Shown here piece by piece: positions 1,692 to 45,028 of a stretch of DNA of 46,702 nucleotides (positions are counted from its first letter, which is position 1; every line of letters begins with the position of its first letter). The notes under the pieces are model-generated. The model was not told the DNA's origin, searched no databases, and saw only the letters and a program-made list of their open reading frames with translations. The stretch covers positions 1 through 46,702 of the forward strand of contig CAXUUL010000048.1 of NCBI GenBank assembly GCA_964255285.1, written 5' to 3'. The position numbers and the translations under genes are program-made. Source of the DNA: Ionaspis alba. Taxonomy: Eukaryota.

Positions 1692-1827
1692 TGCTGGCAA
1701 AAAGGGCTAGGAACTGGACAATAAGGTGTCCTTCTACGCGATCACGGGTCTGTTTGGTATAGGCTGAAGTGACTACTACCTATATGCATCTAATTTAGCG
1801 CAAGAAGGCGGGTGAAGTCATCAGCGA

Positions 1828-2329: not shown

Positions 2330-3742
2330 TTAGCCACCGCTTCTGTCCCTCCACTTCTCCAACAATTCTCCATTGAAAGTCATGTCCAAGATGGCCGTGC
2401 CGAACTCGTCAATGTCAGCTGGTTCCGCCTCGTCAAAGAGCCTCGCGCACTCGAAGCGCTGCAAGAACGCCACATTCTTTCCCAAGCACAGCTTCTCCCA
2501 CTCGGTAGCGCTCGCGGCATTCCAAAGGCCGCTGCGATTCGTGTACATGACGCCGCCGGGGCAGGCCGACCAGCGCTGCTGCAGCGCGCAGAAGATAGGA
2601 GAGAGGCCGACAGCGACGAGCCAGGTGCGGCGAATGCTCTCCGAAAGGATCCATAGGTACCACTGTTGCTGTGAGTAGGTGGACGGCCTTGGCAGACAGC
2701 CGATAAGATGCGCGGCAGCGGCCTGGGTGTTTGACAATGCCTTTGCGGCCGAGTGAAAGAGCTTGCCAGCCCAGCTATCCTGGACGGCCATGTGGCCTTC
2801 GGCGACGTGGCGGGAGCGGATGTCGCCGTCGAAAAGGCCGATGATCTGGTAGACCATGAGCGCGTGCAGCCTTGTTAGCTGCGCGAACAGGCCAATATCT
2901 TGCTCCTCTCCGTCGGCCCATTTCTCCGCGCCAACTCTTTCTAGAACAGCCCCGTTCTCCTGGAGTAAATCGTTCGACCTGTCCTCTATAATTTGGAAGA
3001 CGGTGTCTGTGTTTGCGGGTGTCCGGTGGATATAGCTAGCCAGCGTGGCATGCGCGATCTGCACGCACGCCGGAAAGTTCGCACTATATAGACGGGAATG
3101 GATAAAAGGATTGCTGCCGGTGGTAACCCAGCGTTCGAACCAAGACTGCAGCACCGCCACGTATTTCGTCATCGTCCCTTTGCCAATTGCCTTAGTGGCC
3201 GAGGTTTCCGCTCTATGGGATATCCTCCACGTTTCGGGCGCAAGGAACCAGTCTGCCCCGGTCGCCGGTGCACTGGGCGTTTCAATGAGAGACGTCGGGG
3301 CAGCGAAGTCACTATCTATCAGTGGGAATGCCAGGTCCAACATAAGATCGTCTGCAAGGATTAGGTTTGCGGTGCGGGAGGATGTGTTGCCGGCAACCTC
3401 AGCGAGCAGTTCATCCTCTACTGTCGGCACCGAGCCTCTCAACGCATCCGACAGCAATGGCCGAGACGAGGAAGCTGCTCTGCTTCTCGACCGCGGATAG
3501 ACGCAGGACCTGCCCCTATCCGCGCATCGTGCACACGACGGCATTTGCCGACCGCACTTCCGCTTCGACCTGGCGCAGGCGCTGCAGGCATTCGACTCAG
3601 TGTGCACCGGCATAGTCAGAGGACAAATCTTTTTGGAGTCTTTTTCGAGGGCAGAACTGGCTCCGGATCTTGTCTGCGGCGGCAGTCGAGGGGAATATTG
3701 TAGGCGCGCATTTGTCATCGGGTGGTGCATCCGCATGTCCAT
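2330..3742 (-). CDS. Zn(II)2Cys6 transcription factor
   Basis: Six-Cys cluster CSACARSKRKCGRQMPSCARCADRGRSC and C-terminal WILSESIRRTW motif. Intronless; the true start may be the ATG at 3613. Confidence 0.92.
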   Translation of the reverse strand: MDMRMHHPMTNARLQYSPRLPPQTRSGASSALEKDSKKICPLTMPVHTESNACSACARSKRKCGRQMPSCARCADRGRSCVYPRSRSRAASSSRPLLSDALRGSVPTVEDELLAEVAGNTSSRTANLILADDLMLDLAFPLIDSDFAAPTSLIETPSAPATGADWFLAPETWRISHRAETSATKAIGKGTMTKYVAVLQSWFERWVTTGSNPFIHSRLYSANFPACVQIAHATLASYIHRTPANTDTVFQIIEDRSNDLLQENGAVLERVGAEKWADGEEQDIGLFAQLTRLHALMVYQIIGLFDGDIRSRHVAEGHMAVQDSWAGKLFHSAAKALSNTQAAAAHLIGCLPRPSTYSQQQWYLWILSESIRRTWLVAVGLSPIFCALQQRWSACPGGVMYTNRSGLWNAASATEWEKLCLGKNVAFLQRFECARLFDEAEPADIDEFGTAILDMTFNGELLEKWRDRSGG

Positions 3743-6862: not shown

Positions 6863-8859
6863 TCAAACAATCTTCATCTTCTCGCATCTCGCCTCATCCC
6901 ATGCTTCCCCATGCATGATTCCATGTATGTAGCAGTCGCCGATGATCTCCCATCCAGAAGCCCCGTTTGGACGAATGATGAATGGCAACTTCCCGCCCTT
7001 GAAAAGCGCAACACGATCTCCTGCTTGGGCAATACCCGCAACCATGCCGACGAAACCCTTTTCAGTCATCACCGCCTTCCTGCTAATCATGGCTGATACA
7101 AGCATCCTGAAAGCTATTTCGGGATTTGGGATGCCGAGGAGGCGGAGAAGCTGCTCGATGAGCAGGAATAACATGTAGGCCCAGACAAAGCCTTCAAGAC
7201 GCAGTTTGTACAACAGCCGGAGGTACCACTGTCGTTTTTCGAACTTATTAAATGCATCGCGCATTTCTTCTTTCGTTTTTAGGAACACACCCGCAACAAG
7301 GGTTTGCCACGTTACCTCGTACATGTTTTCTCCCGTCGGGTATTCAGCGCCAGACCGGCCACCGATTACACTTTCCCAATCATACACCAAGGCTTGGTTA
7401 GCTTGTAGGATCTTGGCTTGTGCACGTATTGATAGATTGCCCGTGGGGTTCTGTAGTATCCACTGTCGGCTGATAGATGTAATAGTATCGAAGACATATC
7501 CAGAAAGTTCCAAACAATCATTTGCTTCATCAATGACTGATGAATACGTCGACTGGTTTGAGGCAGCTGCTGGAACTCCGTGGTTCACGGTGTTCGCGTG
7601 GCGTATCTCCAATTGCAGCAAAGAGAAACATACCGGCTGGGAGCAACTCCAGTCAGGAACCCAGGAGGGTAGATCTGAAGCTCTGGCAAGGCGAGGTATG
7701 CTCAGGGAATCTAGATCAGATGCTTTTTCAAGTGTTGCTATTGCGAGTCTTTTGCAGATTTGTTCTTTGCTGACGTTATAGTCTGGTTCGGTGCCATGCC
7801 TTTCGAGACTGACGCGACAGGATATGCCGTAGAAAGCGAAGATATGATCTCGGGCATCTGACGCCAGCGTCTCTCGGTGTCGAAGTAAGACCTCATAATA
7901 TAACGTCTGCAGTCCTTGCAAATATTCTTGCTGGGAGACCTGCAGTAGCAGAAATGCATTCAGATCTGGCATCCCGTAATACTCGAAAACCCAGGCTTGG
8001 GATTGCACAGCGTAAAGAGTCGCGACCACCAAGACGGACCAATGTATGGCCTTGTCACCACAAATAATCCGAAGGTTGGAAGAGACAACAACTTCCTGCA
8101 CCACCCATGCCCTCGTGAACCAAGGGCGGTTCATCAAATCAAAAAAGGCTTTCCATGACTTGCTGGGAACAGTGGTCAATTGGTCGTGGTTAGCAGTCGG
8201 CCACCACGACCGCTTTGCTCCATCCTTTTTCGCTCCGCTCTAAGATGCCTCGTAAAGCCTGTTCGCAACTTCGAGACCGGCCGTGCTATTTTCGCTTTCT
8301 ACGCCGAGCCAGATGAACGTCCTAGTAGCCCTGCGATAGATATCACGCATCANNNNNNNNNNNNNNNNNNNNNNNNNNNNNNNNNNNNNNNNNNNNNNNN
8401 NNNNNNNNNNNNNNNNNNNNNNNNNNNNNNNNNNNNNNNNNNNNNNNNNNNNTCTACGCCGAGCCAGATGAACGTCCTAGTAGCCCTGCGATAGATATCA
8501 CGCATCAATAGAATCTGCTGACTCTTTTCCTCGTTGTTTGTCTGGTCAATACAGACGGAGTCCACCCACAGAGTCCGTTTGGACCCTTTCGCCCGCATGG
8601 ACAGGAGGAATGCATTTAGATTCGAGGGGATACTGAGAAGTTTCTCCTCTCCGCCCAATCTGATCTGGGTTTGGTTGGCCGGGTCGCCCCAGCAGTAGGA
8701 CACGGCCTCGTATTGAGGACTTTGCGATAACCGGTGCACAGCGATGCTGAGGGAGATCTCCCCTTCTTTCTCACCAGGCGGGAGCGTCACGAGGCGGATG
8801 TAGTTGTCGGTATTCGGTTGGGTGACGATTGGGAGCGCCGTGTACTGGTAAGCTGCCAT
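6863..8859 (-). pseudogene. HET-6-like heterokaryon incompatibility protein with one in-frame premature stop (possible null allele)
   Basis: Motifs YEAVSYCWG, LWVDSVCIDQ...MRDIYRRA...IWLG, RPWFTRAWVVQE and C-terminal IGDCYIHGIMHGE. After collapsing the gap overlap the frame is continuous (613 codons) except for TAG at 8242-8240. Confidence 0.8.
8298..8507. other. Scaffold gap (100 N) with exact 55-bp flanking overlap
   Basis: 8298-8352 is identical to 8453-8507, with N at 8353-8452. Confidence 0.95.
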
Positions 8860-9454
8860 TGAGATTGTCCGAGTTCTAATGCGCTAGAAGCGGAAATGTA
8901 GATCCTTTAGTTATTGTTGAGGCAATGTTTCATGGATGGGAGCATTTCGAAATGTGGATTTTGTCTAGAAGTAAATGATGAGCATGCTGAGACTTGACTA
9001 TAGTAAATGTGATTGTGTTGCAGATAATTCTTCAGATTTGATCTTGCAAGGTACACGCTATTTGGTAGGCCACAGATGCCAAATCAGATCCGGCAGATTA
9101 ATCACGGCATCTAAGCGTGCAGGCGGCTCGGTCCAGAGGCTTAAATCAGCACTTTGCCAAGCATTATCGATGCAAGACTAAGGCCGCCATCTGCAGGCTG
9201 AGGAAGATGTCAGAATTACCACAAACACGTGGGGGTAAGGTCATTTACAGAGAAGCCCATGTATATGTTCATCGTAGGTGTGAATTCTGTGTAAAGAATA
9301 AAAGCCGAAGTGAAAGTAGCAGAAAGGGTAACGCTCTCAAGTTTCTTGGAGTCTTGGAGTCTTGCAACAAGATCAAGCCACAGTAACTCCACGCTAAGAC
9401 CCGTAAGCCATATACCGAAAAGCCAAATTCCACGCTCCATTGCAATCGTCAATA

Positions 9455-11443
9455 TCAAGCCCACATCTTCGCAGTAACAGCCTTAGTCGCCAGGACCTCG
9501 ACTCTCCTCGCATAAACCTTCATCATATGCATCACCGGATCCCCGAACACCACGCCTCTCAACTGCTGGTCCGTAGTAATCTCCGCTCTGACATCATTGC
9601 CATTCTGGCTGGCTCTCAGTGCAACCAAACGACCAGCGTTTGAGAGCGATCCTGGAGGTACTTTCCAGATAGGCATTGATTTGACCGGTGCACTATGAGC
9701 TCTCTCCACTTTCGGTCGAGGTTTGAGCCCGAAGTTGAACTTTGGCGGAGCGATGGCGGGCATTAATGCGCCAATGCAGTTGGAGCCTGGTGCGGGAGAG
9801 GCGTAGAGATCGAATAGGGAGCGGATGTAAGCTTTGTCCGAGCGAGGGACTCTGTGATCTGTATTAGCAAGATGAATGCACAAAATCCAATGAAATGGCT
9901 GCGTACGGATCGCCCTCGTTGATGAAGGAAAGGAACAGTGATTTGCGATATCGAGGATTATTCGGCTTCGAAAGTGGAAGAAGCGAGACTGGGGGAGCCC
10001 CGAAGGTAATGCAGTGGATGCGTTTGAAGCCTGGATAATATTAGATCCGCGCTTCGTGAAAAGCTTGCAGTAGTGCTCGAAACCTACAGCCAGTCAAGAT
10101 GTTGAGTTCCGACCGAACCCCCTCAGCCAACATATGCGTAAATAGAAGACTGGCAACCGCCCCTCCCGCCGAATGCCCAGTCATAATCAGCGAGCAACAG
10201 CTTCGCGACGGATCTTCTTCCAGCAAAGATCGGAGACGAGCTGCGACGGGTTTGATCATTTTACGAGCTACGGAAAGAAATCCGGCATGACACATGTTGC
10301 CTGCATCATCCTGTTTCTAGTTAGCCTCAAGTCTATGAATTGAAAGGAGAAGGGCTGATGGGCATACTAGAAACCCGGTTGGCGGTGCAGGTGCTGAACG
10401 CAAGTTGACTGCCCAATCCATGAACGTCTGACTACCTCGTATGGCAAACACGACCGTGTTCATGTCGTCAATAGGGATGGACTTGATGACCATTGCCTTT
10501 GTGCCGACGCGCCAGTCGGCGTCCACATGGGCTTCGCGCTCTTTACCCGTAGGTTTGGTGTAAACTCTTTGGGAATATTGAGCTGCTAGACATATGAGTG
10601 GGTACGAGGGTAGATATCTGGAGTGAGAGTTAGCGTCATGCTCGATGATCATGGATTAATTGCCGTACAGTTTGAGGGGTGGTAGGTACGGAGGCAATTT
10701 CGAATTGGCATAAAGGTTCACCTTGGCGAAGTAATTCGTGCTCCCCGGACTGACTGCTGCGGAAGAGATGGCATTGTTGGCAGTCCGGGAGAGCTCTCTA
10801 CTCGAGAGTCCCCACCCGCCTCGGAGTGCTGGATCAGGTGGTTGGTAGATCACTATGATATGTCAGAAACCAAAGCCATGATTGAGAAGAGGAGGGATAG
10901 CATACCGAGTTCCTTCTCATCTCCGCTAAAGATCTCTCCATCTATAGAGGTGATAACGGCATTGAACTTTGAAGATATCAGATCACAGACTGGTGTTTTG
11001 TGAGCCAAGAAATCTGTTCCTCTTTGGTGCCATCCATTTATGTCATCTATGGTGTTCTGAATTGGTCGAGTCACGATCTCTCGCAGGTCCGTACACGACC
11101 TTCCGGTCAATGCTTGAACCCATGGCTTGTCGATAGAAACTGGTGGTCCTGGTGGTGGTGGTGAGAGATATCCATACGGCGCTGGTGGTGACCGTGGCGG
11201 ATGCTGTGGCTGCAAGCGCGGATCGAATGCTGAGTATGGTGGCGGTGGTGTGGAGATTGGCGGATGGACTTCGACTCTAGGGGGAGCAGGTTCTACTGTC
11301 TTCGCTGGCTTTGCTTTCCCAAGAGTTTTGGCTTTCTGTTTGCTATTGCTTTTCCCATTATTGCATTTGCTGCCTGGTTTTGGCTTCGATGCCGGGGCCT
11401 TGGCACTACGCTTCGGCTGTGTGGTTTTGATGAGGACCAGCAT
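9455..11443 (-). CDS. Class 3 lipase (alpha/beta hydrolase) with Pro/Lys-rich N-terminus
   Basis: Exons 11443-10906, 10852-10669, 10617-10368, 10310-10088, 10030-9907, 9852-9455. Motifs FAIRGS, CHAGF, nucleophile GHSAGG, ITFGAPP and NEGDPVPR. Confidence 0.9.
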
Positions 11444-11847: not shown

Positions 11848-14751
11848 TCAAGAATCCCTTATCTTAGCCTGTCTTTTAGCTGTTCCGATATGCGTGTTGT
11901 GAACCTTGAAGAATTATCAGCGGGGTGCGCTCGCACAGGCATGTATCAGTAGTCACTCACCTTAGTCGCGAATTTCAGACTTGTTAAGGTTTCGCTGAGA
12001 TGTGCCTGTAGCGGACTAATCATCACAAACATCAGGGTCTTGGAGTTTCCGCCAAGAGAGAACTGCAGCAAGTAGGTCAACTACAGCGTTTGTTAGCCAT
12101 GTGTAACAGTGGTTTCCTGTAGGGACAAGCCTTGATTACCTTGCTATTTCGGTAAGGCACATGTCCTCCTTCCTTGCCCTGTCCCAACGCACCAATGACA
12201 TCTCCCAAACAGCTTAGACTCTTGTTGATGTTCTGCGTTTCCTTCAACCGCTCTCCGGTGCTGCCGCTGTGACTCAGTCGTTCGCTGCCAGCAAGGTCGA
12301 CTAGGTTCAAGGTGCCTTCGCTCTTCTCGCCTGTAATGCTGTTCTCGCCAATGAGCTTCAATATGAAGACTGAATGACTTCTCGAAGACCGCTCATTGGC
12401 TTTGGTAGCCGCAACTGAGCGATTGGCTGTTGCTTGACGTAGTATCATTTCGACTTTGCTTGGGGTGTCCAAATTCACTGTGGTGATATCGGTTATTGTG
12501 GTCTTGCATTTTTGCATATCATGCCGGATCTCATGTTTCTTTCTGTCGAACTCATCCGCTTTTCCCAGTAAATCGTTGATGTTCTCATTGTACACCTCCA
12601 CGAACGAGCCCTCCATTGAATATCTCCACCCCTTTTCCTCCAAAGATGTTGCAGTATCGTAAATTTGCCGAACTGCTCTAGGAATCATGCCGTCTTCCGA
12701 AGACATTGTAAATGTTTTACCTGCACCAGTCTGTCCATAGCAGAAGATACAGACATTGTATCCGTCCAGAGCACTTTGAACAAGTTGACTGATCTCGTCA
12801 AAGACATCAGCATTCTGTGATCCTGGACTGAACACTCGATCGAACGAAAACGCGTTCTTCTTCCTCGTGACATTCCCCAAACTGCTTTTCTCCTGCGGAC
12901 CGAGTATCTCCACTTCCTTGGAATCAACTTGATCGTCTGGGAATGTGATTCGGGCAGCCTCTCCGTCCGTCGGATCGGATTCCAGCGAGGGCCGAACTCG
13001 ACAGAAAACTCGGATGTTGCCCTTCAATTCTTGCACTTGATTGTGTAGTTTCCTCCTCAAAGTCTCTTCTATTCTCAGCTTTTCGTTTGCTTCCGCAGCA
13101 TTTCTGATTGCATCCTGTGTCTTTTGCTCTAGGTCGGCAAAAGCTTGGGATTGGCTCTTACAATCTGACTCCAGAAACTCGATCCGTGCTCGCAGGCTAC
13201 GCATTGATGCCTCCAGGCTAAGAGTGTTGCTTGCAGCCTCCGAAAGCTTAGCCCGCAAGTCTGTATTGAGATCCCTTTCTCGCAAAGCGTCGGTCTTGGA
13301 CTTCTCGACCTCATCCTGTAGGGCGCCAAGAGCTTTGTGCTTCATCTCCAACTCCACTTCAATCCTCTGCTTCGCCATGGCTCCTTCACTCGATAGAGCC
13401 TGGACCTCCTTCCGTCGTCGATCCTTCTCGTCTTCGATTGCATCTTCCAGTCGACGTCGTAAATCTGTAGTCTCGTCTCTGTGCTGCCTGACGAGTCGAT
13501 GTACCTCTTCTTCCCCATCGCGAATTGCTTGTTCCAGACTTCTGCGATGTTGCCGCTGCAAGTCTTCAATCTCGACTCTGTGGTTTCTTGCGGCATCGTC
13601 CAGAGTCACGGATGACGAGTTCAACTCAGCCTTCACTCCATCCAATTCTCTTTGGAGCATTGCATTCTTGTCCGCCAGTTGCGTCCTCATCACGTCTAGC
13701 TCAGTTACTGTGATTATTGTCAGCTGCTGAATAGACGAAGCATGAAAAAAATGTTTTCTACTTCTTGCTTTGTACAGGCTGAGACTCTCCTTAAGGCCGT
13801 TAGTCTCCACCGTAGTGCTACTCATTGAGTGCTTCAGCTCGGCGTATAGATGCTCAACATTCTCGAGACGGGATTCGGGGTCCCACACTGTAGCTTTGAC
13901 ATTAGAATCTCTTGTTAGGAATGGCACGAGTTTGTCAGGCTTTTTAGGTGACTTGGATGGACTAGGAGTATTCACAGCCAAGGAAATCTTGTTGTTCTTT
14001 CTTTTCGGAATATGAGAGGGTGATATGCAAGGGGTGGCTGCCTCATCTTTTGGTAGATTAAATGAAATGCTTCCGTTCAACGATAATTTGCTGAATGAGG
14101 TAGATAAGGAAATGTCACGTAGACTCTTGACTGAATGTGCGTTGCTAGACTGCAGCGAAGGATATCTTTTTGCAGAAGAAAACGGGGTCATACTGTTGCG
14201 ATTTATATCCTGTTGTGCACTGGGAACCTTCGCATGATTGTCGAACGAACTGGCCGGCCTTCTGGTGCCTGCAACGGGTTTCTGGCCAATGCAGTGTGAC
14301 ATTACAGACTGGGGGCGGAATGACTGTGCAGAAGGCGGTCGGCCTCCAGAGCCAACACTGCTCGAGAAGGAGCTGTTGGAGACATTGCGTACTAAGGCAG
14401 CGGAAGGTGGCCGTGAGGAAGTCGAGGACGAGAAAGATGTCTGTCGAGAGATCCCAGCGATTGATGTCGTCTTGACAGCAGTGTTGAAAGGCCTCGAACT
14501 AGGTGGGGCTGGGGCAGGTCTAGTAGGTTCACCTGCACGTTCTTGAAGTGTCTTTCTTTTCAACATGCCCGGTGGAGGAGGTAACATGCTCGTGGTCTTG
14601 ACATTGTTAGCTGATGCTGTGATATCAGACAACTTTCCTGGTGATGGTATGCGACTAGGCTGTCGAAGGTGGGAGGTGAACTATGAACTGTTAGAGTCGA
14701 AGAACTTGGAGATGTCAAAGTGTGCCATACCGAGTTCTCGTGATTGTCCAT
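11848..14751 (-). CDS. KAR3: Kinesin-14 (Kar3/KlpA) C-terminal motor protein
   Basis: Exons 14751-14731, 14659-13762, 13707-12141, 12080-11961, 11904-11848. Coiled coil followed by [39 protein letters not shown] and [14 protein letters not shown]. Confidence 0.96.
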
Positions 14752-21748: not shown

Positions 21749-22975
21749 ATGTCGCACAGTAAATACAGGAAAGATATCTTACAGTGAGTTGATATACTAA
21801 CCTTGATTACTAGGTAAACGAAATACGTCTCTTGCTTTCTTCACGTCCTACGAGCGGTCTCTCCTAAAGTCTACATGGGGTTCCCAGGCAACCCGGCTTT
21901 CCCGTGACTCCTTCCTCCCTTTCGCGTCATGTCGTCTCTGTCTCCAAATTGCTCGTGACCCCGTTGCATGCGCAGCAAGCGGAGACATTTTTTGTCGAGA
22001 ATGCGCTATAAGTAATCTCCTGGCACAAAAGAAGGAGATCAATAGGCTTGAGAAGGACTTCGAGAGGAGGAAAAAGGAGGAAGAAGAGCAAGAGAATGAG
22101 AAGGGCGAGGAGGAGAAGGAAAGAGCGGTAGAAGACTTCGAAAGGGTCATGAACGGCCTAAGCAAGGCGTCACAAAAACGAGACAACGGCGCCACTTTGC
22201 TGGAGAGGCCGCCAGAAGCTGCGATAGAAGGTCGTGGTGTGAAGCGGAAATTTGAATTGGATGAGGAAGAGATGCTGAAGAACGCCCAGGAGGAGCGAGT
22301 GAAGGCTCGGAGGGCGTTGGATGAGGAGAAGGTAGGATTCGCCTTGGCCAGCGGCTATTACAACATATTTTTTACTAATCTACACGAAAGTCCTCGAAAG
22401 CAAGGCTTCCATCCTTCTGGGTACCGTCCTTGACACCTTCCTCCGGAGTTACGAGCACTACAAAAGTCCTCAAGCTGCATCCGTTATGTCCTGCATCCTC
22501 TCTTGATTCGCCGCATTCACTCTCCCTTAGAGAACTCATCTCCGTCCATTTCAGCACCTCAAGATCTGCCCTAGACCCATCTACTTCTCAGTTGGAGTCT
22601 ACTCGGATATGCCCTGCCTGTAAAAAGGCGTTGAAGAATGGTGTCAAGGCAATGCTCACCGTTCCTTGCGGTCATGTGATTTGCAAAGCGTGTGTAGGGA
22701 AGTTCATGACGCCTGATAAAGGAACACCCGATCCTCATGCAGCTCACAATGGGATCACAGATGAGCTTAAGGTAGTATGCTATGTTTGTGAAGAAGACCT
22801 AACTGCAATAGAGCCCACGGAAAAGGACAAGCCGGAAAGGGCTAGTAAACTGGGGAAGAAAGGGGAGAAGGCCAAACTCAAACCAGGTCTTGTGGAGATA
22901 TCCGCTGAAGGCACAGGATTTGCTGGTGGTGGTCAGAATATGGCGAAGCGGGAAGGCGTGGCTTTCCAGTGTTGA
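21749..22975 (+). CDS. NOSIP-like RING/U-box protein
   Basis: Exons 21749-21758, 21814-22331, 22391-22975. MSHSKRNTSLAFFTSYER...WGSQATRLSRDSFLPFASCRLCL, LPSFWVPSLTP, RING CPAC..CGHVICKAC..CYVC and EGTGFAGGG. Confidence 0.88.
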
Positions 22976-23635: not shown

Positions 23636-25311
23636 ATGGCGCATTCAAATGCACCGCTTGTGGGCAACAAGCATCTTTCGACCAGGCAGCCGTCACCAGG
23701 CATAGACGAGCGACTACCCCAAGACGGTACTATCATCGAGTACAACGAAGAGTATGAGAAGTTAAATTCTTCTTATCAACTTTCGTGGAACAAATTGATG
23801 GAGGAGGGGCCGTATGAAGTATCTTCTGCCTATCAGAAGGTTGCTGTTCTACTCATATCCTGGGCCAAAGAGTTTGACGACCTAGGCGTGGAGAACGAGG
23901 TAATATTCCCAGCCCTTATGTACGTACAATAGCTAATGGTTGGAGGTGCATGAGCTTGGAGCAGTCTTCAAAGATATCTACAACTTCAAAGTTCGACCGG
24001 TTCAGCTCCGGTGCGAGAGCGGAAAGAACCCACAAACCCGAGTGACTCGTCATGTAGCTGAGTTCGTGGATGATGAAGGCGGCCCTAGAACATTGTTGAT
24101 AGTTTACTACGCTGGGCATGGAACACCAGGACGTATCGACGGCTTTCTGGAGCTCGCTGGGTGAGACTTTCCTAGGCCAGCTCCACGTTTCCATTGTCGG
24201 GTGCTGATAGCATACAGGAAGAGTACTCCTAACCAGATCAGGGAGAAACTAGATAAGGTAGTGTGGAACTGGACGGAATATGCTTTGAGAGGGACAAATG
24301 CCGACGTCCTCGAGATCTTTGACTGGTAAGAAGGCTAGTGAGGAAAATCAAAAACACGTACTGAGTACTTGCATTACTAGTTGCTACGCAGGAGGGATTG
24401 GTGGTTTGAATAGAGATATAGGAAAAAAGTAGGTGTCAAACTCTTGCTAGCGTCAAAAATTACTTAGCAGCTCTAGGGCATTCGAATTCCTCGCTGCGAC
24501 ATCTTCCAATTCTCTAACCAGACTACCCGGAGAGCAGTCATTCACCACAGCACTTATTTGGGCGCTCAAAGAATTTGCGAACAAAGGACGGCGTTTCACA
24601 ACGTCCGAGCTCCTGAATAAGATTAGAGAGGATGCTCCGAACTTTCCAAAGAAGCAGGTGCCTGTTCTTTCCGAGCGAGGTGGTGCCAGCTCTTCAGAAC
24701 GAATCATGCTTGAGCCCATTCCCAGACCTGGTGATCCGGCATCGTCGAAGACTCGCCGCACGACGGAGTCGACCACACAAGAGCTGCTCACCCTACAATT
24801 CATGTTCAAAGCACGTCCAAGTCCAGAGGAGGTCGAGCGATTGGGTCTGGAGCTGAATGGAATTATGGCAAAACATCCCTTTGGCGTGAATCGTATCATG
24901 TGGGGAGGATTGAAGTCATGGCCGAATTCCGTCATTGTCGAGGCAGCAAGCAAATTCAAAGCCTTGGGATCCAAACGGCAGCTGAGAAATGCTTTCTCCA
25001 GCAATGGGCCGGAAGTGGAGGATTTCCGCGACGATCTCACGCCCAGTCTCAACCCCGTCTTCGTCTCAAAACAGGATGTTCGTGACGCCTTTCGCTCTGA
25101 GTTAAGTCACGAGCTCATGCATAAAACTGTGTCTTATCATTCGAGAATGCTCGTCTTCGCTTTGTGGGCCTCGGTCTTGTCTTTGAGTCGGCTGTTCCCG
25201 GACAAATCTCTAAGCTTCCGTGTCACCCAAGGACTTATTATGGTCTTGACATTGTGTACTGCAATATGGATTGGCTTGGGACCCTTATGGATAAGCAACG
25301 GTGCCATGTAG
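23636..25311 (+). CDS. Caspase-fold (clan CD, peptidase C14-like) putative cysteine protease with C-terminal hydrophobic segments
   Basis: Exons 23636-23899, 23946-24160, 24218-24325, 24381-24428, 24477-25311. Motifs VAVLLISW, LLIVYYAGHG (His), VLEIFDC|CYAG (Cys), EFLAA and SFTTALIWAL. The intron 1 acceptor (GAG) is atypical. Confidence 0.8.
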
Positions 25312-25990
25312 ACCGCTATCGAAAAGGATCAACAATATCTGAGCTCACACTGACGCCTTGGACTACTTCAATCACTCAGACAAGAAAGAAATCTCATCGC
25401 TATGTATTGCAATGCTTTAAATTCAGCATTTTTTTGGAGCAGGACTCATTGAGGAGTAGCGAAGATTCAGGCTGGACAACAAAGGTTAGGATTTCCCGAG
25501 TGACGAACAATTCATGACTTATAAGAAAGAGTTGACTTAATCTAGGAAAAATGAGTCGAACTGGTAGTCATCAAGAACATGGTGCCTTTTCAGGAATTGT
25601 CGCACCTGTGCTACAGAACAGTTGCGCAAAAGGGTGCCATGAGGGAATAGGAAGGAGACCTGGCGCAGACACTGTCAGCAGGCATTCTGATTTCATGACC
25701 TGCGATCGATAAAAAGCAATCTATTTTGCATGGATCTAATGCAGTTTGTTATCTTTTGCGTGCTCCGCCACTTGTACCACCACACCATTCGTCTCTTCAG
25801 CTGGCCCCCATCGCTTGTAAACCTACTCTGGAAGCGCGAGGGCCATTCGCAGAGCAGAGCCTCATTCAAGAGCACAAAAGGCTGAGATCGTACTTTACAT
25901 CCTCCAACTCGAATCTGCCTTGCGTCTGAAACTCATTCGACACCTGGAATTAGTCTATTTCATGCACTCTCTGGGCGCTCTCATTTCAGG

Positions 25991-26380
25991 ATGTCAGAAC
26001 CACTAAAGGTATTACAACGGCTTGTGATGGGACTTTGAGCTTACATTGGCTATGGCTCTAGAAAGCGACAAGTCCCGAATATAGATCATACGTCCCACCT
26101 CAACCAATAGAACAAGTATGACTCTCCCAGCGACCGGAAATGGAGAACGGGCAAATATTTGAACGCCAACTAACGAGCACATTTATAGCCTGAGTCCTCT
26201 TTCGAAGTCGATGATAAAGTCTACATGAAAAATCCGAGCACTGACAAATTTGAATGGCTCATGACGGTGGTATCGCGGTCGTATAACAGCGATAGACCTG
26301 GGTGGAATTACAAAGTCAAAGATTCTGATGGAAAAGAGTACCCGTCTGAGGTGGTAGAAGATGATCTGGAGGACGCCTAG
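25991..26380 (+). CDS. Hidden 87-aa three-exon microprotein with SH3/Tudor-like beta-barrel pattern
   Basis: Exons 25991-26008, 26062-26115, 26189-26380; both introns phase 0 (GTATTA..TAG and GTATGA..CTAAC..TAG). Product MSEPLKKATSPEYRSYVPPQPIEQPESSFEVDDKVYMKNPSTDKFEWLMTVVSRSYNSDRPGWNYKVKDSDGKEYPSEVVEDDLEDA. Confidence 0.72.
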
Positions 26381-26754
26381 ATCGTTCAATATAAGCCAAT
26401 AGAGTCTTCCATTCCTACTGCTGTTCGATGCCTGTGGGTTGGTGGCGCCCGGTCAGTCAATCATTGATAGTCAAGAATCGAATATGCCTTGCAATGCCGG
26501 CTAGACCTAGAAGCCGGCCATGTGTAACATGAGCCTTGTGGTGCGGGACCCAGAAATATGACCTGAGGGTGCAATGCAGGCATTCACCCGATGCTCTCTA
26601 CTAATCAACTTAATCGACCACTCACCGTGTGCATGAATATGCATCGAATGCTCTTGAGTCTCCCTTGGACTCAAGTGCGCACTGATCATAAGACTGCGTT
26701 ATCCCCGGCCTTGTTCTCCTCACCCAGACCCTATGCATTGTACCAAGCAAAATC

Positions 26755-28265
26755 ATGGAGGCATCGAACATTTCAAGTGCATTAGCTAATGACTTGGAAC
26801 GGGGCGAGGCTGTCTCTTCCACCCACTACTATGAGAAAAAGGATCCAAGTAGTCCAACAATCAGTGATGGCACGACTTTGAGATCAAGTGTGCGCAACCC
26901 ACTTCGACGTGAGCCTAGCGTTCAATCCTGCCTTCCCAAGCCAACGCCTGACATGAACAGTGATCCGTACACTACCATCTTGGAGTCGAAAATGGGGAAG
27001 TCCCGGCGCAGGTTTGCCCGCCGCCAAGCCGAGATCGAGAACGATTATCAGGAAACGTAGGCCAGCTCAAATTCATGGAACGTGCTTCACTTCACTAAAG
27101 TCAATCAGTCGAGGACTATCCTATTGGCTATCCAAAAGTTGCAACGTTCCTAGACAGCGACGACTGTTTCATGATTTATCGACGCTTCGGTCATCTGCAC
27201 TCTAGACTGCTTCTCTATAAACAGGACGAATTGCGGATGCTCGAAAATGAACTCTACCGAATGGATCACCGCGACTTCAAGGACGACAAATCCAGGAAAT
27301 GCCTCAAGTCCCGTAGCAAAGACGATGCGCGTAAGGGCATTCCCGTCGGGGAGTCGCGGAAAGAGCTGCTGCAGAAGATTGAGAAAAAAATCTTAGAATA
27401 TGGTCCTTGTGCTTTGTTTCAAATTCCTTTTGACTCATGCTAACGGCTGATGCAGGCCAAATCTTCCAACAGGCCCAGCAATTCGTAGGAACAAACAAGC
27501 CGCCCCGGCGAGACCAAGCAAGTGTACAGAACTTCTTAAACATGGACCCTCCACTGCTCGAAGGAGATAGCAAGTTCATCTATGAAGCTGAGGACCTAGT
27601 CACTCTCAGACCCGGCCGCGAGAATGCGTGGCTAGATGCATGTGTTGAACGATCTCTAAGGTTTTTTCATTGCCTACCCATCAACGTAAGCTGCTCAATA
27701 AACAATATGTTTATGGCGCTGACATCTTTGCACAGCGCATGTTTTGTTCAGAGGTCAATTTCTCTAAGTTCATATATGACAGCTACATCAGAGAACACTG
27801 ACATGGGGTATTAGGAAACCAAAGCCAAAAGTGCCGACCCCAGGATAATATATTTCACTAAGTCACGGATTGACTTCTTAGTCACCCTCATAATTACATG
27901 CATGATTCTCATATTGCTGGTCGTTCCGATTTGGGTCCTTTATCACCTCACAGTTACTCTTGACACTAACACCTCTAATACAATCTGCATCGGTGTCCTC
28001 CTGATCTCGACCCTGATATTCTCGGCCGTGCTATCTCTATTTACAAAGGCAAGACGACACGAAATACTGGCGGCCTCTGCCGGGTGAGTTCCGCAATTTC
28101 ACAGTGCATTTCATTTGAAGATTCGGTCAGAGCTTCGGTCCAGGAGCAATTAGTACAAGCGTCCGGTCACGCATAAATACTAAAGCTGTCTCCGACAGGT
28201 ATTGTGCTGTATTGGTGGTATTTGTTGGAAATGTAGGTGGACACGCGCCTGTGAGCGGGCCCTGA
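26755..28265 (+). CDS. DUF6594-like protein with C-terminal transmembrane helices
   Basis: Exons 26755-27056, 27101-27402, 27456-27685, 27736-27753, 27815-28083, 28199-28265 (intron 1 acceptor uncertain). Motifs EDYPIGYPKVATFLDSD..IYRRFGHLHSRLLLYKQDEL, EDLVTL and FSAVLSLFTKARRHEILAASAGYCAVLVVFVGN. Confidence 0.82.
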
Positions 28266-28954: not shown

Positions 28955-30424
28955 ATGTCTGACCCCAACAACCCCAACATCGCGAAGCGAGAGACGCCTC
29001 AATGGTCCCTCTATCAACGCGAGAACTTCTGGAAGCCAAATAGCGGAGAGGTGCCTCCATTCAATACTGGTAGGACCCCTTCATATCAGAGCTATACATC
29101 AATTGATATTCCCGCACCCAGAGCCTGGCAGACTAGAAGAGCTCGCCAAGGAAAAGCTGACCCAAGGAGGATGGCATGTATCCCTCTCTCCTGCTCAGCC
29201 ATTTTCGGCAACGACCCTATTTTGCTCCCATTACCGCTTTCATGATCTCTTTCAGCTGATGCATTCGAAGGCTCTACGCGTCGTCCAACGCCGGACAATC
29301 GTACACTCACCTCGCCAACCGTCAAGCCTTCTTTCGACACCGCATCATTCCCCGCCAGCTCGTCGACACCAACCTCCGTGACACACGGACCAGCATCTTT
29401 GGCCACACCGTGTCGGCACCTATCGGATTCGCTCCTATAGGCATCAACAAGATCTATCACCCGCTCGGTGAGCTACCAGTTGCAAAGGTTGCTGGCGAGC
29501 TCAATCTTCCCTATTGCTTATCCACAGCTGGGTCAACAGCAATCGAAGATGTGGCGAAGGCCAATGGCCAGGGTCCGAGGTTCTATCAGCTGTATATGCC
29601 GCACGATGATGAGTTGACGGTGTCGCTGTTGACGAGGGCATGGAAAAGCGGCTTCGATGTTTGTATATTGACAACAGACACATGGCAGCTTGGTTGGCGA
29701 CACGACGATGTGGCCACGGGCAACTATGCTTTCTATCGTGGCATTGGCGCCGATCTTGGACTCACTGATCCAGTCTTTCAGAAGCGTTTGGCAGCCAAGG
29801 GGATTGACCCTGCAGAAGATCCACAGCGGGCTGGTGCCGAATGGATCGATAGTGTGTGGCACGGGCGAGCCTGGAGCTGGGAGAAGATCCCTTGGCTGAT
29901 CAAGACATGGAAGAGCATCAGTGGAGGTAAGCCTTTCTGTCTTAAGGGCATTCAGAGTGTAGCAGATGCCATGAAGGCAGTCGAGGTGGGTTGCGATGGA
30001 ATTGTGGTCAGCAACCATGCCGGGAGGCAAGTGGATGGAGCCATCGCAAGCCTGGACGCTCTGGAAAATATAGTGGCGGCTGTGGGAGACAAGACGTACA
30101 TAATGTATGACTCGGGGATCAGGGGTGGAGCGGATGTGCTGAAGGCGTTGGCCATTGGTGCCAAGTTCGTGTTTGTTGGGAGACTGTGGATTTGGGGACT
30201 GAGCATCATGGGAGAAGCTGGAGTGAGGCATGTTATGAAGGGCTTACTCGCGGACTTTGACATTCTGATGAACGTTGGAGGATTCCGAAACATCGGACAA
30301 ATCGATAAGAGTGTGCTTGGTGAGTTTGTCCCCGTACTTGTCGAGCTGATGAGAATATACTGACCTTGGGATAGAATCTTATCCAAAGGGTTATGCTATG
30401 ATAGCAGAGAAGTCGAAGCTCTAG
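28955..30424 (+). CDS. FMN-dependent alpha-hydroxy acid oxidase/dehydrogenase (lactate oxidase/monooxygenase-like), peroxisomal
   Basis: Exons 28955-29069, 29122-29173, 29271-30319, 30375-30424. Motifs LKGIQS, VVSNHAGRQVDG and DSGIRGGAD; C-terminal -SKL (PTS1). Confidence 0.93.
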
Positions 30425-37794: not shown

Positions 37795-39161
37795 TCAGAT
37801 CTTCCCCCCAGCAAGGCCCTTGGTTCTGGATTTGATCTCATCCACCCGCCCGCGCGCTAGACTAATCCCCGGAACGATCCACGCTCCACAGCTGCAGCGC
37901 ATCCCCTGCCATGCATACTTGCCGACATTGGTCTTGCACTTCGCATTCGGGCATTCGAGCCGGCCGTCCAGCTTTCCTTGCTCGAGCTCGGACCGCATCC
38001 AGGAAAGAGGGTCGAGGAAGAGGTGCGCGCATGGCGGTGAAGGGGTTGAAGTGGTGGTCACGAGCGATGAGATGGGTCCATTCGCGATGGACGTGGGTGC
38101 TGGGGACGACTTGGGGCTGTGCGGTATTAGGTAGGCGGAAGTTGCGAGACTGCGTCTGCATTTCCGACATCGGTAGGAGATGGAGTCGTTAGAAGAATCT
38201 GTGCTGGAGGCTTCGTCCTCGAAGCGTATGGAGTCGGGGGCTCGCCCGCAGGCGATGCTGCTTTCGACTTCGCGCTGGTAGAGCCATCGCTGGTACATAG
38301 GTTGACTAGAGATGTCTTCAGGGCAGCCCATCCGGTGGTAGAGTTCGAGTTGTTGCATGAACCCAGGGTTAGGTTCTGCGACAGAGCGGGTCTCGCGGAT
38401 GGTAGTGAGAGCGGCTTCTGGGGTTGTGGAGGGAGAAAGGCTGAGAATGTAGGCGATGATCAGGGTTGCGGAGCGGGACTTGCCCATGGCACTGGTGACT
38501 GGGTATTAGCAGGGCCTTCATAAACGGGATCGTGCCTCGGCATTCGTGCTAGCCAGTAAAGGGGTTTCGCAAAAATAAAAAGCGAAAAATCGAAAAATCG
38601 AAATAGTTGATATTATCCACAGGAACATGGATCTTAAGTCGGCGATCTCGGCGAACAAAATGGTGAGATCGACCGACCAATATGCTCAACGTAAATGCCA
38701 ATATACAACGATTCTGGTAGAGTATGAATCGGATCCAACACAGATTAGTCACACCGAGAGAATGATTACACGAGAAGAAATGAATAGGAAATACGGAGGT
38801 ACAGTCAGCTTCATACCAATGAACAAGGACACCCCCTCCACCATCCAAGCCGTCCTGAATGAAAGCATTGCTCTGAGCAAAGTACTGTAGGATATCCTCG
38901 TCTTCAACATCATCAAGCTCAATAACGAGATGTTTGTAAGGCGCAAATAGATCCGGATCCAGGGGGAGCCTCAATGCCGATAGCACATGGGTTATGTTCG
39001 CAGCCTTGAGAGCTGCGTAACGCCGCAAGGAGAATAGTCTGGTTTCACATTAGGGTTTTAGGGTAAAGGGAGATTGGGGGCAGTGTGGGAGCTCGATGAC
39101 GACTTTTGACTAACCCGCCGATGAAAAGTTCCCCGTGTCCAGAGATCCGGTCGAGCGACAT
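37795..39161 (-). CDS. YVH1: Dual-specificity phosphatase Yvh1 with C-terminal Zn-binding domain
   Basis: Exons 39161-39115, 39038-38817, 38491-37795. Splicing restores VLVHCAMGKSRS; also PNPGFMQQL, CRKCRR, CAHLF, GRLECPNAKC and WQGMRCSCG. Confidence 0.95.
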
Positions 39162-42251: not shown

Positions 42252-45028
42252 ATGGATAATACTCGCGTTACGTCGCCGCCATCGATTCGTGTTGATTTCG
42301 GCCATCCCTACGCCCTGCACAGTCCTCCAAGCAGAAGCTCTATACACTCTTCGAATACCTCGAAACCTTTCTCAAAGTCAGCTTCTCCGAAGTCGATACC
42401 CACTTCAAGAATGGAATCGCCGCCGCCCCCGCTTCCTCCTCCGAGATTTATAAAAGACCTTGCGGTTGGGCAAGATCCAGGCTGGCAATGGGGAAATACC
42501 AATATCAATGGCGCAGGTGGCGGTGCAGTTGGAACTGGAACAGTCAGTCCAGGGTCAAGTTTACGATCTGGTTGGGATAGGCGCATGGACATAGACGAGG
42601 GTATTGAAGACTCGAAAGACCATAGACGAGGCAATTCGACACCTAGGTACAAGTCACCTCACGATACGGATATGTATGATTACACACATCGAGACGAAGG
42701 TTATAGCAGTCTGTCAGGCTCGAGTCTCTTCCAAAAGTCAGTGCACTCCATCTCTTTTGTCAAGATGCCGCCCGCCTATATTCGCTCAAGAGTTATCGTT
42801 ATGCTCACCAGACTTTCTCACTTCATCCACATAATATGTTCTCATCTCGTCTATGATCAATCTTTCACGAATTCACAGTTGGCCAAAGATAGGATAAGCT
42901 GATCGGTCATTCTGCGCAATCTTAGGCTTCACGGTGAACGTCCACTTGAAAGAAGAAACAGGCAGGATTCCTCTCACGCGTACGACAAACAACTTCTCTC
43001 AAAGATCGGTAAACCTAAAACACCCCCACGAGCAAGCACATCAGGAAGTATGGACGCTTCACCCAATTCGAATGCGCCATACTACAACATGCCGCAACAT
43101 CCAAAGCAACTCAACTCATTGTCAACATCCGACAGATCACTCAGTTCATCCTCGGACTCACCCTTCAAAGTTGGCTCGCCATACAGCCGCAAATGGATGG
43201 ACAGCCCGCGGCCGGGCGTAGTATCGCCTGGACTGATTTCGTCTGCTGCAAATGCAAAGAATTACATGGACTACCGCAGTCCAACGCTCGACAACAGTAA
43301 TGCTGCGTCGCCCGTAGCGGAGTCGGAGAGATTTGGCCGTGTTCGCCAGTCGGCACGACGGTCTGACAGTAACGGGTCATTAATGATGACAGGCGGGGGA
43401 GGAGGAAGTGGCAGTGGTTGCAGTGGCTTTGATGATGAAGCCTCTAATAGTAGTGTGGCGGGCAGGTCTAACCGAAGCGAGAACTACGACCAAGGCAGCA
43501 TTTTCCCTACCGAGCCGGATCTGGACTCGGATTTTCCCATGGAAGAGACTGGTGGAATGCGACACCTCCACCTGGATGATCGAGCGCCACTGCATCCCGA
43601 GCTCTTCTCTCCTCCGAAGCAGCAGCTCTCGCATTCTCATTCACGGCTAGGAATGAAACGCAGAGCCTCTTCGCCGCCGCGAGAGTCAGCAGGGGACGAC
43701 AAAGCCCCACCTCAGATTATTGCAGGTGGTGCCGCTAGTAGCGAGCTCTTCCAACGTCGCACCTCGGGCCACCACGACCGACTTTCAGCAAATCGCGCTT
43801 CTCCTGTCCATCAATACCACCCAACACAAAGTTCCCTTTCATCATCGACATCTTCTGGCGGTCTTCGAACCGGCTCATCATACGCGTCTTCTGCCGGTTT
43901 ATCGGTCGGTAGCAGCATAACCAGTGTCTCATCGCACGATAGATCCTCCCCGGGCGGCATCTCACCTCTGTCGGACCAACACAACGGCGTCCGCGATTCG
44001 TCTTACGGCAACTCGGTCTCCTTGGATCCGAACACTCGAGTCACGAATTCCCTACATCAACGCTTACCTTCAGACACCAAATCCGTTGCTTCCATAGCAC
44101 GTAAAATGTCGGCCGACAACATGGGTCGAGGCAATCCTCAGGACGCGCCTAGACTACAGGCTAATGTCCACATCTGTGTCTGCTGCCCTAAGAAACCCAA
44201 GAAGTTTGAAACTCTAGAGGAGCTTCGGTAAGTGGCTGACAGGTCCCGTCGAGTCGGGCTGTGCCGTGTCTTCTAACACTTGTTGTCCACAGTCACCACC
44301 AGAACGAGAAACAATACTTCTGTCTCTACTGCAACAATCGTTTCAAAAATAAGAACGAAGCCGAACGTCATCAAAACTCTCTACACCTCCGCCGTCACTC
44401 CTGGTCATGTGCGACTCTTGATCGCAACTATGAAGCAGCCTTCCACCCCAACACCGCCATTCCACCTCACACAAACTCCAACGCGCCACCTCCACAACCT
44501 GGTGTACTTGCACAGACTGATGTCTGTGGATACTGCGGCCTAGAATTTCCAAACTTCCCTGCACCAGATTGGATCGCGAGAAGTAACCATCTCACAAATG
44601 TTCACAAGTTCGGTGAATGCAACCAGAGTAAAAAGTTTTTCCGTGCAGATCACTTTCGACAACACCTCAAGCATAGTCACGCGGGCACAAGTGGGAAATG
44701 GACGAACATGCTGGAGAATGCTTGCATGAAGGTCGAACCACCACTTACACCCGAGGCACAGAGTCAAGAGCAACTACGCCAGCAGCAACAACAGCAGCAG
44801 GTACACCAACAACAGATGCAGAGTCAATTGCAAGGTCACCTACAAGGTCAACCACTCCAGCAGCAGCAGTTCCAGCCACAACAACTTCCCAGTGCACCAG
44901 TAGCGAACATGACAGGTGGGGGATCAGCTATGAGGCCGATGGGCTACGGTGGTGTTGGTATGGGCATACCAGGTAGCAGTGAACTACAACACCAGAAGAT
45001 CGAAGAGGAACTGCAAGAGGAAATGTGA
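42252..45028 (+). CDS. C2H2 zinc-finger transcription factor
   Basis: Exons 42252-42736, 42926-44227, 44293-45028. CVCCPKKPKKF..H, CLYCNNRFKNKNEAERHQNSLH, CGYC..H..VH and KFFRADHFRQHLKHSH; N-terminal PPPLPPPR and YDKQLLSKIG motifs. Confidence 0.92.
44780..44884 (+). repeat. Imperfect CAG/CAA repeat encoding a poly-Q tract
   Basis: QQQQQQQVHQQQMQSQLQGHLQGQPLQQQQFQPQQ in the TF C-terminus. Confidence 0.85.

Follow-up and report, generated by a model that had tools for sequence, protein, structure and literature searches.

Three genes that follow one another on one strand of a fungal contig may be neighbours by accident or parts of a single system, and this is the question raised by the locus described here. 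In contig CAXUUL010000048.1 of Ionaspis alba, analysed over positions 1 to 46,702 of the forward strand (46,702 nucleotides, hereafter the window), a gene for a divergent caspase-like protein (G1), a gene for an 87-residue microprotein (G2) and a gene for a DUF6594 membrane protein (G3) lie between positions 23,636 and 28,265. An earlier note on this DNA had read them as a candidate undescribed module, possibly analogous to gasdermin systems, in which a protease would activate a membrane effector and the microprotein would serve as adaptor, sensor or inhibitor. Relatives of the three genes are linked to each other in many other loci, and we are confident that they form a real conserved functional module of Pezizomycotina. 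The way in which the module would work can be proposed more tentatively, and it is discussed after the evidence for the module itself.

The three genes are intact and co-oriented on the forward strand, as the earlier note had it, with open frames and canonical GT..AG introns; short introns of this type are typical of the genes of the window, a contig of Pezizomycotina. The gene models were drawn up manually, guided by splice signals and reading frames, and then compared with homologues. The spliced proteins of the window were handled in scripts, and searches were run with exon pieces or with homologues. The models are as follows.

23636-23899, 23946-24160, 24218-24325, 24381-24428 and 24468-25311, forward strand: G1, divergent Peptidase_C14-like protein (putative metacaspase type), 492 residues, five exons, splice model
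25991-26008, 26062-26115 and 26189-26380, forward strand: G2, 87 residues, three exons, the 5' exons placed from splice signals alone
26755-27056, 27101-27402, 27456-27685, 27736-27753, 27815-28083 and 28199-28265, forward strand: G3, DUF6594 (PF20237) protein, 395 residues, six exons

The evidence that these genes belong together comes from other loci. JGI and GenBank metagenome contigs were scanned with an alignment of G1 relatives, which gave 116 pattern stretches, of which 87 were confirmed and 80 loci kept, and the six-frame open reading frames (ORFs) of these loci were searched with DUF6594 and G2 profiles. Grouping at 95% nucleotide identity or more over the G1 gene reduced the 80 loci to 50 clusters, not all of them independent lineages, and 21 of the 50 are informative in having at least 3 kb on each side (taking the longest flank of any member). 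A DUF6594 gene stands within 3 kb of G1 in 19 of the 21 informative clusters and a G2 gene within 3.5 kb in 18; both partners, and hence all three genes, are found in 18. Over all 50 clusters the counts are 27 for DUF6594, 27 for G2 and 31 for either, many contigs being 1-4 kb long, and the clusters with neither partner are mostly short contigs. The density of DUF6594 genes tells the same story: 26 in the 192,237 bases within 3 kb of G1 versus 2 in the 271,673 bases beyond, an 18-fold difference. Against the ~4% predicted by that background density, 19 of 21 corresponds to a binomial p of ~3e-24, the background consisting of two events only. All 45 hits to the G2 family fall no further than ~3 kb from G1, the remainder of the loci and of the window containing none, and around 77 distant bacterial caspase-like genes (844 kb), which served as a control, neither a DUF6594 nor a G2 gene was found. 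The linkage of G1, G2 and G3 is far beyond chance, and the recurrence across fungi by which the earlier note proposed to check its module is there.

The order of the genes is much less constant than their association. Among 23 trios (22 loci and the window) we distinguished at least five arrangements, written here with arrowheads for direction: G1>G2>DUF> in 6, including the window, <DUF<G2 G1> in 8, <DUF G2>G1> in 4, G2>DUF>G1> in 4 and G1> <DUF<G2 in 1. G2 adjoins the DUF6594 gene in every trio, which is not always the case for G1. On maximum-likelihood trees the arrangement changed 8 times along the G1 tree and 8 times along the DUF6594 tree, the minimum possible being 4, and the two trees contain the same well-supported clades. 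Beyond the three genes the flanks have no family in common: antisense ORFs aside, only genes with a HET (heterokaryon incompatibility) domain turn up, in 3 of 25 contexts and never adjacent to the trio; the genes that flank the trio in the window are absent from all fetched loci. Pairwise identities are correlated across trios (r 0.84 for G1 and DUF6594, 0.74 for G1 and G2, 0.68 for DUF6594 and G2), values that 0 of 2000 permutations reached, and two trios are, in the median, 34% identical in G1, 46% in DUF6594 and 23% in G2. Since these medians are low and the divergence is correlated, the trio must be old and inherited or duplicated as a whole. Several distinct trios also occur within single metagenome assemblies. 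The three families are kept together by selection and not by plain synteny, and the view of the earlier note, that this is a recurrent undescribed module and not a set of chance neighbours, is strongly supported by linkage, arrangements and co-divergence alike.

The first partner, G1, has the marks of a caspase-type protein with putative catalytic His and Cys residues and C-terminal hydrophobic segments, as had been predicted. All four of its exon junctions are covered by alignment with the full-length homologues P0005 and P0026, and its main features are these.

24117..24119, forward strand: codon of the putative catalytic His146 (YYAGHG), from the spliced model and conservation
24324..24384, forward strand: codons of Cys196-Cys197 (FDCCYAG), the first Cys codon being split by intron 3
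24784..24912, forward strand: conserved post-caspase domain (LTLxFxF...RIxWGGL), from the consensus of alignments A1, A5 and A6
25147..25293, forward strand: two C-terminal hydrophobic helices, residues 439-455 and 467-487

The motifs come in the order of the caspase clan, ...LLIVYYAGHG... being followed by ...VLEIFDCCYAG..., each coming after a hydrophobic strand. The His is nearly invariant in alignments A5 and A6, as are two cysteines, C211 and C212, in A6. The first motif reads AGHG or SGHG in 22 of the 23 trios, the remaining one falling at an exon edge; FDCC is legible in 16 of 23, and in the other 7 it is broken by an intron or frame boundary at the motif. In the window the intron lies at the catalytic Cys codon (FD/CC), and at L003, L006, L015 and L021 the match stops right after FD, which suggests that the trios of this clade have an intron at the same position. 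Twelve of 20 full-length G1 homologues score above the gathering score of PF00656 (21.4 bits), 3 come slightly short of it and 5 gave no match, the matches running from the first strand to past the Cys. Exon 2 of the window gene alone, in an exon-by-exon scan, scores 17.5 bits (E-value 0.0035), and trio relatives score 30.6 bits (L069, a single exon), 22.5 (L011), 25.2 (P0168) and 20.3 (P0174). A precomputed PF00656 label is carried by P0168, P0171 and P0271-P0276, and Botrytis relatives of G1 are named 'Peptidase C14 caspase domain-containing protein' in UniRef. The post-caspase domain encoded by exon 5 matched no Pfam family, and a search with this exon among 1.84 billion proteins returned 592 representatives (50% identity clusters, E-value <=0.001). 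The hydrophobic C-terminal segments are common to G1 and its closest homologues P0005, P0026 and P0007.

The active site also gives a hint of specificity. In metacaspases, an Asp two residues ahead of the Cys lines the S1 pocket, and G1 has an Asp in the same place (FDCC[HY]AG, as in the metacaspase motif D-x-C-H-x-G). Because the motif parallels that of metacaspases and includes this pocket Asp, G1, if it cleaves, would most likely do so after Arg or Lys, in the manner of metacaspases, and not after Asp as animal caspases do. According to the available part of PMC3881575, YSGHG and SDSCHSG are the metacaspase motifs of Arg/Lys-specific enzymes, and in G1 the corresponding His-Gly and Asp-x-Cys-His-x-Gly motifs follow each other in the same order and surroundings. 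We infer from these motifs that G1 would be active as a cysteine protease of clan CD and of the metacaspase type. It differs from metacaspases in being very divergent, in having its own conserved N-terminal stretch and a C-terminal domain without a family, and in carrying membrane anchors in some lineages. Other members of the family have their own peculiarities. P0272 of Coleophoma cylindrospora (800 residues) joins a caspase domain of the G1 family (76-250) to a protein kinase domain (504-787) and is either a fusion or another merged gene model. Tandem G1-like genes on the forward strand at L071:7654-8287 and 9335-10570 have no DUF6594 or G2 gene within 9 kb, and the L004 cluster consists of a solo G1 relative.

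The second partner, G2, at first looked like an orphan. A first search, near-length and word-based, returned its own window ORF as the sole match; an iterated profile run over the flanks of G1 relatives gave 45 hits (31 distinct), all adjoining G1 or DUF6594. That profile was derived from the same loci in which the hits were counted; the hits are strong and position-specific, and there are none in the control DNA. The structural model concerns the third exon.

26189-26377, forward strand: exon 3 of G2, Tudor/chromo-type beta-barrel, 63 residues, based on 27 homologues and a model

The earlier note had described the protein as an SH3-like barrel, and the prediction agrees: AlphaFold2, run on the third exon of the window gene with an alignment of 28 sequences, returned a five-stranded beta-barrel with a predicted local distance difference test score (pLDDT) of 95.9. 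This model superposes on the MRG15 chromo barrel (2F5K) with Z 8.4, on the PHF19 Tudor domain (6WAU) with Z 8.3 and on the 53BP1 Tudor domain (3LGF) with Z 8.1, at a root-mean-square deviation of 1.8-2.3 A over 52-57 of 63 residues. Foldseek gave template-modelling (TM) scores of 0.60-0.74 to Tudor and PWWP domains, but with E-values of only ~0.04. The core of G2 is thus predicted, by a confident model, to be a five-stranded SH3-type barrel superposable on solved Tudor and chromo barrels. With the Royal family (Tudor, chromo-barrel, PWWP) G2 would share this barrel, although a Z of ~8 for so small a barrel establishes the fold only. It differs in showing no clear membership of any of their sequence families and in being a stand-alone acidic protein of 87 residues (net charge -8). 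The window protein matched no Pfam family, a scan of the G2 family gave scattered sub-threshold hits, mostly in single members (e.g. LBR_tudor, E-value 0.022 in 1 of 28), and a profile search of the Protein Data Bank (PDB) sequences brought up no credible relative. Barrels of the Tudor type serve generally as adaptors, in protein-protein contacts or with RNA.

The third partner, G3, is by its sequence a clear member of DUF6594. Three of its exons match the Pfam profile with E-values of 7e-22, 7e-9 and 2e-17 (79, 36.5 and 64.4 bits, the gathering score being 30 bits), and together they cover positions 1-85, 90-153 and 158-231 of its 238. The gene model agrees from end to end, N-terminus included, with the annotated homologues P0173, P0239 and P0178. 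An alternative intron 1 of 89 nucleotides, which is phase-compatible and removes RFARRQAEIENDYQET, was dropped, and the 44-nucleotide intron was retained because homologues keep a comparable basic stretch. The features of the protein are as follows.

26998..27027, forward strand: basic cluster KSRRRFARRQ, residues 82-91, in the N-terminal ~100 residues
27117..27254, forward strand: DUF6594 signature helix region (GYPxxAxFxDSDxxFxIYRRFGxLxxRxLLxKQDELxxLE)
27590..27637, forward strand: conserved loop EDLVTLRPGRENAWLD, residues 247-262, a candidate contact site for a protease or partner
27875..28042, forward strand: predicted transmembrane hairpin, residues 305-329 and 341-360, followed by TKARRHE
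28200-28241, forward strand: short hydrophobic C-terminal helix, after TKARRHE

The earlier description of a DUF6594-like protein with several membrane segments and KSRRRFARRQ in a disordered N-terminus stands on these matches and on the model of a homologue. The structure discussed here is that of P0170, which is 60% identical and was modelled with an alignment of 60 sequences. In it a disordered N-terminus is followed by helices between ~90 and 277 and then by two further, long helices of membrane length (288-320 and 326-349); according to DSSP it is all-helical except for one short hairpin. Disorder is thereby predicted for the equivalent N-terminus of G3, residues 1-72 of the P0170 model having a pLDDT below 50. 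In the signature region D, S, F, R, R, F, G, R, Q, D and E are invariant in alignments A3 and A7. The loop is at least 90% conserved across the 23 trios; EDL.TLRPGRE.AWLD is the most conserved stretch of DUF6594 outside the helices and has a low pLDDT, since it coincides with a loop of the P0170 model (234-245) that is predicted with low confidence. Of 119 close DUF6594 homologues, 94 contain the pattern L[RK]xG[RK][ED]. A second, more divergent DUF6594 gene stands beside the trio at L040:2970-4125 (forward strand), 5.3 kb upstream of G1, and likewise at L041; at L040 its conserved loop reads LNTRERE, not LRPGRE. A profile search of the PDB sequences with DUF6594 matched only a coiled-coil-like stretch of tropomodulin (E-value 0.005).

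How does such a trio compare with known systems? The N-terminal domain of gasdermins is built on a beta-sheet. G3 and the DUF6594 model gave no Pfam hit to gasdermins and no match to the gasdermin fold; the pore-forming fold of gasdermins is not seen in the homologue model, in which the membrane partner would be all-helical and would cross the membrane as an integral hairpin. In fungi, genes for gasdermins stand in clusters with those for the S8 or CHAT proteases by which they are cleaved, as described in the available part of PMC8851545 (Clave et al. 2022). The HET-Q1/HET-Q2 pair of Podospora anserina is of this kind, and what the trio shares with such clusters is the recurrent tight grouping of a protease and a membrane-protein gene in filamentous fungi, found here in 19 of 21 clusters with an 18-fold enrichment. 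From the same available text, the protease of gasdermin clusters is sometimes of the caspase clan, the clusters comprise two or three genes and the association is long-lasting, as in the trio. The trio differs in its protease, a short stand-alone divergent C14 protein and not an S8 or CHAT protein with sensor repeats, and in a constant third component, the Tudor-like barrel. A search for short motifs common to the three window proteins, as in amyloid-type signalling, gave nothing (best E-value 0.4). A second comparison is offered by EACC1-caspase, a two-gene membrane-associated conflict system of multicellular bacteria (Kaur, Burroughs, Iyer and Aravind 2020, PMC7159879, available part). In both cases a constant membrane protein is encoded beside a protease of the caspase superfamily, and joint action at the membrane has been proposed for the bacterial pair. 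EACC1-caspase is, however, prokaryotic, and is described in that text without a Tudor-like third gene; EACC1 has just one conserved transmembrane helix, extended by short stretches, whereas G3 is fungal and would combine a helical domain of ~200 residues with a two-helix hairpin. G3 does not group with EACC1, DUF6594 being present at 0 of 77 bacterial caspase-like loci.

Based on these comparisons, a mechanism may be suggested. G1 would be a protease of Arg/Lys type and G3 its dedicated partner, most likely its substrate; we infer that the two act on each other, as do fungal gasdermins and the S8 or CHAT proteases clustered with them (PMC8851545 and PMC12881547, in their available parts). G3 is predicted to consist of a disordered N-terminus, a helical domain of ~200 residues exposed to the cytosol and a transmembrane hairpin. 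G1 could cut it at the invariant flexible LRPGRE loop, or else in the basic N-terminal tail, and after the cut the helical domain would no longer be attached to the membrane part. This might switch a membrane activity and lead to permeabilisation, to cell death, or to a stress or non-self signal, while G2 would act as adaptor, sensor or inhibitor by docking or restraining one of the partners. The full scheme, in which G1 cuts G3 and G2 has one of these roles, is offered tentatively: we consider it possible, and somewhat doubtful in its entirety. Of the overall interpretation in the earlier note, then, the recurrent module stands, and the gasdermin-like, protease-activated effector with its microprotein keeps the status of a proposal, the DUF6594 model matching no pore-former and no solved fold.

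Several points weigh against this picture and deserve to be put together. Concerning the linkage, all loci were found with one G1-specific peptide pattern, so that one branch of each family was sampled. Two of the 21 informative clusters (the L004 cluster, and L071 with its second G1-like gene) contain G1 relatives with no partner, and one more (L068) has no detected G2. Co-divergence, moreover, indicates co-inheritance and not interaction. Concerning G1, a profile search of PDB sequences (E-value <=1) found no solved relative, Pfam support is marginal, with scores near the cut-off, and a hydrophobic tail (Kyte-Doolittle mean >1.5) is present in 8 of 23 trios, so that membrane anchoring is not universal. 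Concerning G3, the mean pLDDT of the P0170 model is only 68.9, Foldseek found no match to it in the PDB (best E-value 1.0), and an exhaustive VIA fold search matched the transmembrane hairpin only, with Z up to 8.2, which is generic; as modelled, the all-helical protein resembles no known pore-former. Finally, most close DUF6594 homologues keep the LRPGRE loop, including ones that are not known to be linked to a protease, and it may have another role.

The reverse logic, in which G3 senses a signal and switches the protease on, is equally compatible with the data if EACC1-caspase is taken as the analogue. DUF6594 would then sit in the membrane as a sensor or docking site, where it would recruit G1 and activate it, with G2 as a bridge, and the proteins cut would be others. 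The linkage evidence serves this idea exactly as it serves cleavage of G3, and there is a two-gene system of a transmembrane protein and a caspase in which the membrane component has been proposed as the sensor (PMC7159879, available part). Fifteen of the 23 trio G1s, moreover, have no membrane anchor of their own and would need a membrane partner, and the conserved charged surface motif DSD..F.IYRRFG..R.LL.KQDEL on the helical domain would suit a binding interface. Yet EACC1 has a single helix and no similarity to DUF6594, and the scan of the flanks brought up no other candidate substrate linked to the trio. On balance we regard a sensor or anchor role of this kind as rather unlikely.

A non-lethal role in processing or signalling is possible as well. 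The trio would in that case be a housekeeping or regulatory module for membrane-protein processing or signalling (stress, developmental or organelle-membrane), with no part in death or non-self responses. It does sit amid ordinary genes, such as those for a RING protein, an FMN dehydrogenase and a kinesin. The annotated neighbours, the two flanking genes coming from the general annotation of window ORFs, are listed below.

78-1700, reverse strand: protein kinase
2330-3742, reverse strand: Zn2Cys6 factor
12077-14632, reverse strand: C-terminal-motor kinesin
22149-22975: RING/U-box gene, upstream flank of the trio
29410-30363: FMN-dependent dehydrogenase gene, downstream flank of the trio
37795-39028, reverse strand: dual-specificity phosphatase, intron-split
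43050-44231, forward strand: fungal C2H2 finger

Nothing ties the trio to NLR, HET or other allorecognition domains (the few HET genes of the contexts being non-adjacent, as said above), and the general adaptor function established for Tudor-type barrels would fit a regulatory module. Set against this, the families are large and very divergent (592 representatives for G1 exon 5, and the median identities of 34% for G1 and 23% for G2), and distinct trios in the same assemblies are more typical of expanded conflict or immune families, a point that is suggestive only. Family size, divergence and the several trios per assembly lean, in the same suggestive way, toward a conflict or immune-type function, and a non-lethal module of this kind seems to us, likewise, rather unlikely. 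Cleavage of G3 by G1 is the reading retained in what follows.

Chance neighbours or unselected synteny, that is two expanded families and an orphan ORF, would agree with the large size of DUF6594 in fungi and with the first impression of G2, which found only itself, and are very improbable in view of the 19 of 21 informative clusters against ~4% expected, the at least five arrangements with non-conserved flanks and co-divergence, and a 28-member G2 family found only beside G1 or DUF6594.

The database entries suggest a last alternative, in which the trio would be the exons of one gene for a protease-Tudor-DUF6594 protein. Searching with G3 exon 2 retrieved, among the longer proteins, three NCBI models from lichen-fungus assemblies of Teloschistaceae in which G1, G2 and DUF6594 are merged in the order of the window: P0168 of Xanthoria mediterranea (829 residues), P0171 of Flavoplaca navasiana (802) and P0174 of Squamulea sp. 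(893). Their G1 part is 40-44% identical to the window, their G2 part 45-51% and their G3 part ~60%. A profile scan of the fetched proteins added P0083, a G1+G2 merger (fragment), and G2+DUF6594 models came from Cudoniella acicularis (P0215, Leotiomycetes) and Trypethelium eluteriae (P0237, Dothideomycetes). In all, there are six such mergers of two or three trio genes, in Lecanoromycetes, Leotiomycetes and Dothideomycetes. The fused models skip stop codons and the C-terminal part of G1 and look like annotation errors, the G2+DUF6594 models being possibly real fusions. A single gene, for which the three models of 802-893 residues that span all parts are the only argument, has a negligible probability and is excluded because (i) DUF6594 and G1 lie on opposite strands in the arrangements <DUF<G2 G1>, <DUF G2>G1> and G1> <DUF<G2, (ii) G1 and G2 of the window end in stops, and 28 of 28 G2 sequences stop within a few residues of the last barrel strand, and (iii) G3 has its own conserved start (M.AS..SS..AN).

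Two side observations concern the surroundings of the trio. A gene with a HET domain lies at 8350-8859 (reverse strand) of the window, 15 kb upstream of the trio, and others stand within 10 kb of G1 relatives at L006:12188-13897 and L071:18107-20467; HET genes are very common in such fungi, and this proximity may be due to chance. Other sequence runs were also compared. In run X1, from the same organism, one long contig spans the whole stretch and differs from the window, over 14 kb, by a C>T change and a single-base deletion at 26594 and 26609 and by nothing else, both differences lying between G2 and G3. Run X2, of the same study and organism, gave short, low-depth and near-identical pieces, and run X3 a weak match to the FMN-dehydrogenase gene only.

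In the literature searched, subscription-only papers, subscription journals and supplements being outside its scope, the term 'DUF6594' is absent from all 8.4 million papers and preprints, and the trio is undescribed in work on the caspase-like proteins of fungi, on gasdermin clusters, on lichens and on the effector domains of NLR proteins; the available part of a survey of fungal NLR domains makes no mention of caspase or C14. Compared with the known clusters of a protease and a membrane partner, the trio is new in its membrane family, in its branch of proteases and in its constant third component, and within the scope of our searches DUF6594 is here placed for the first time in the context of a protease and a Tudor-like protein. 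The finding also exposes what looks like a systematic annotation error, with six models merged (three triple, two G2+DUF6594, one G1+G2).

The association described here provides a first functional context for DUF6594, a large fungal family, and for a populous, divergent branch of fungal caspase-like proteins. It bears on the long-standing question of what the caspase-like proteins of fungi do, and on whether protease-driven death or immunity extends beyond the gasdermins. This question becomes directly testable in a compact trio for which the catalytic dyad and the P1 preference are predicted and one loop is a candidate for cleavage. In its widest form, which we think unlikely and put forward as speculation, DUF6594 proteins would be membrane executioners or signal transducers of a new, protease-gated class, specific to filamentous ascomycetes: a metacaspase-like protease would cut LRPGRE, the Tudor-like microprotein would set the trigger, and the freed part would permeabilise or remodel the membrane. 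If this were true, protease-gated DUF6594 would constitute a third fungal pathway of regulated cell death or immune type, beside the gasdermin and the HeLo/MLKL-like pathways, and one expanded in lichen-forming and other Pezizomycotina.

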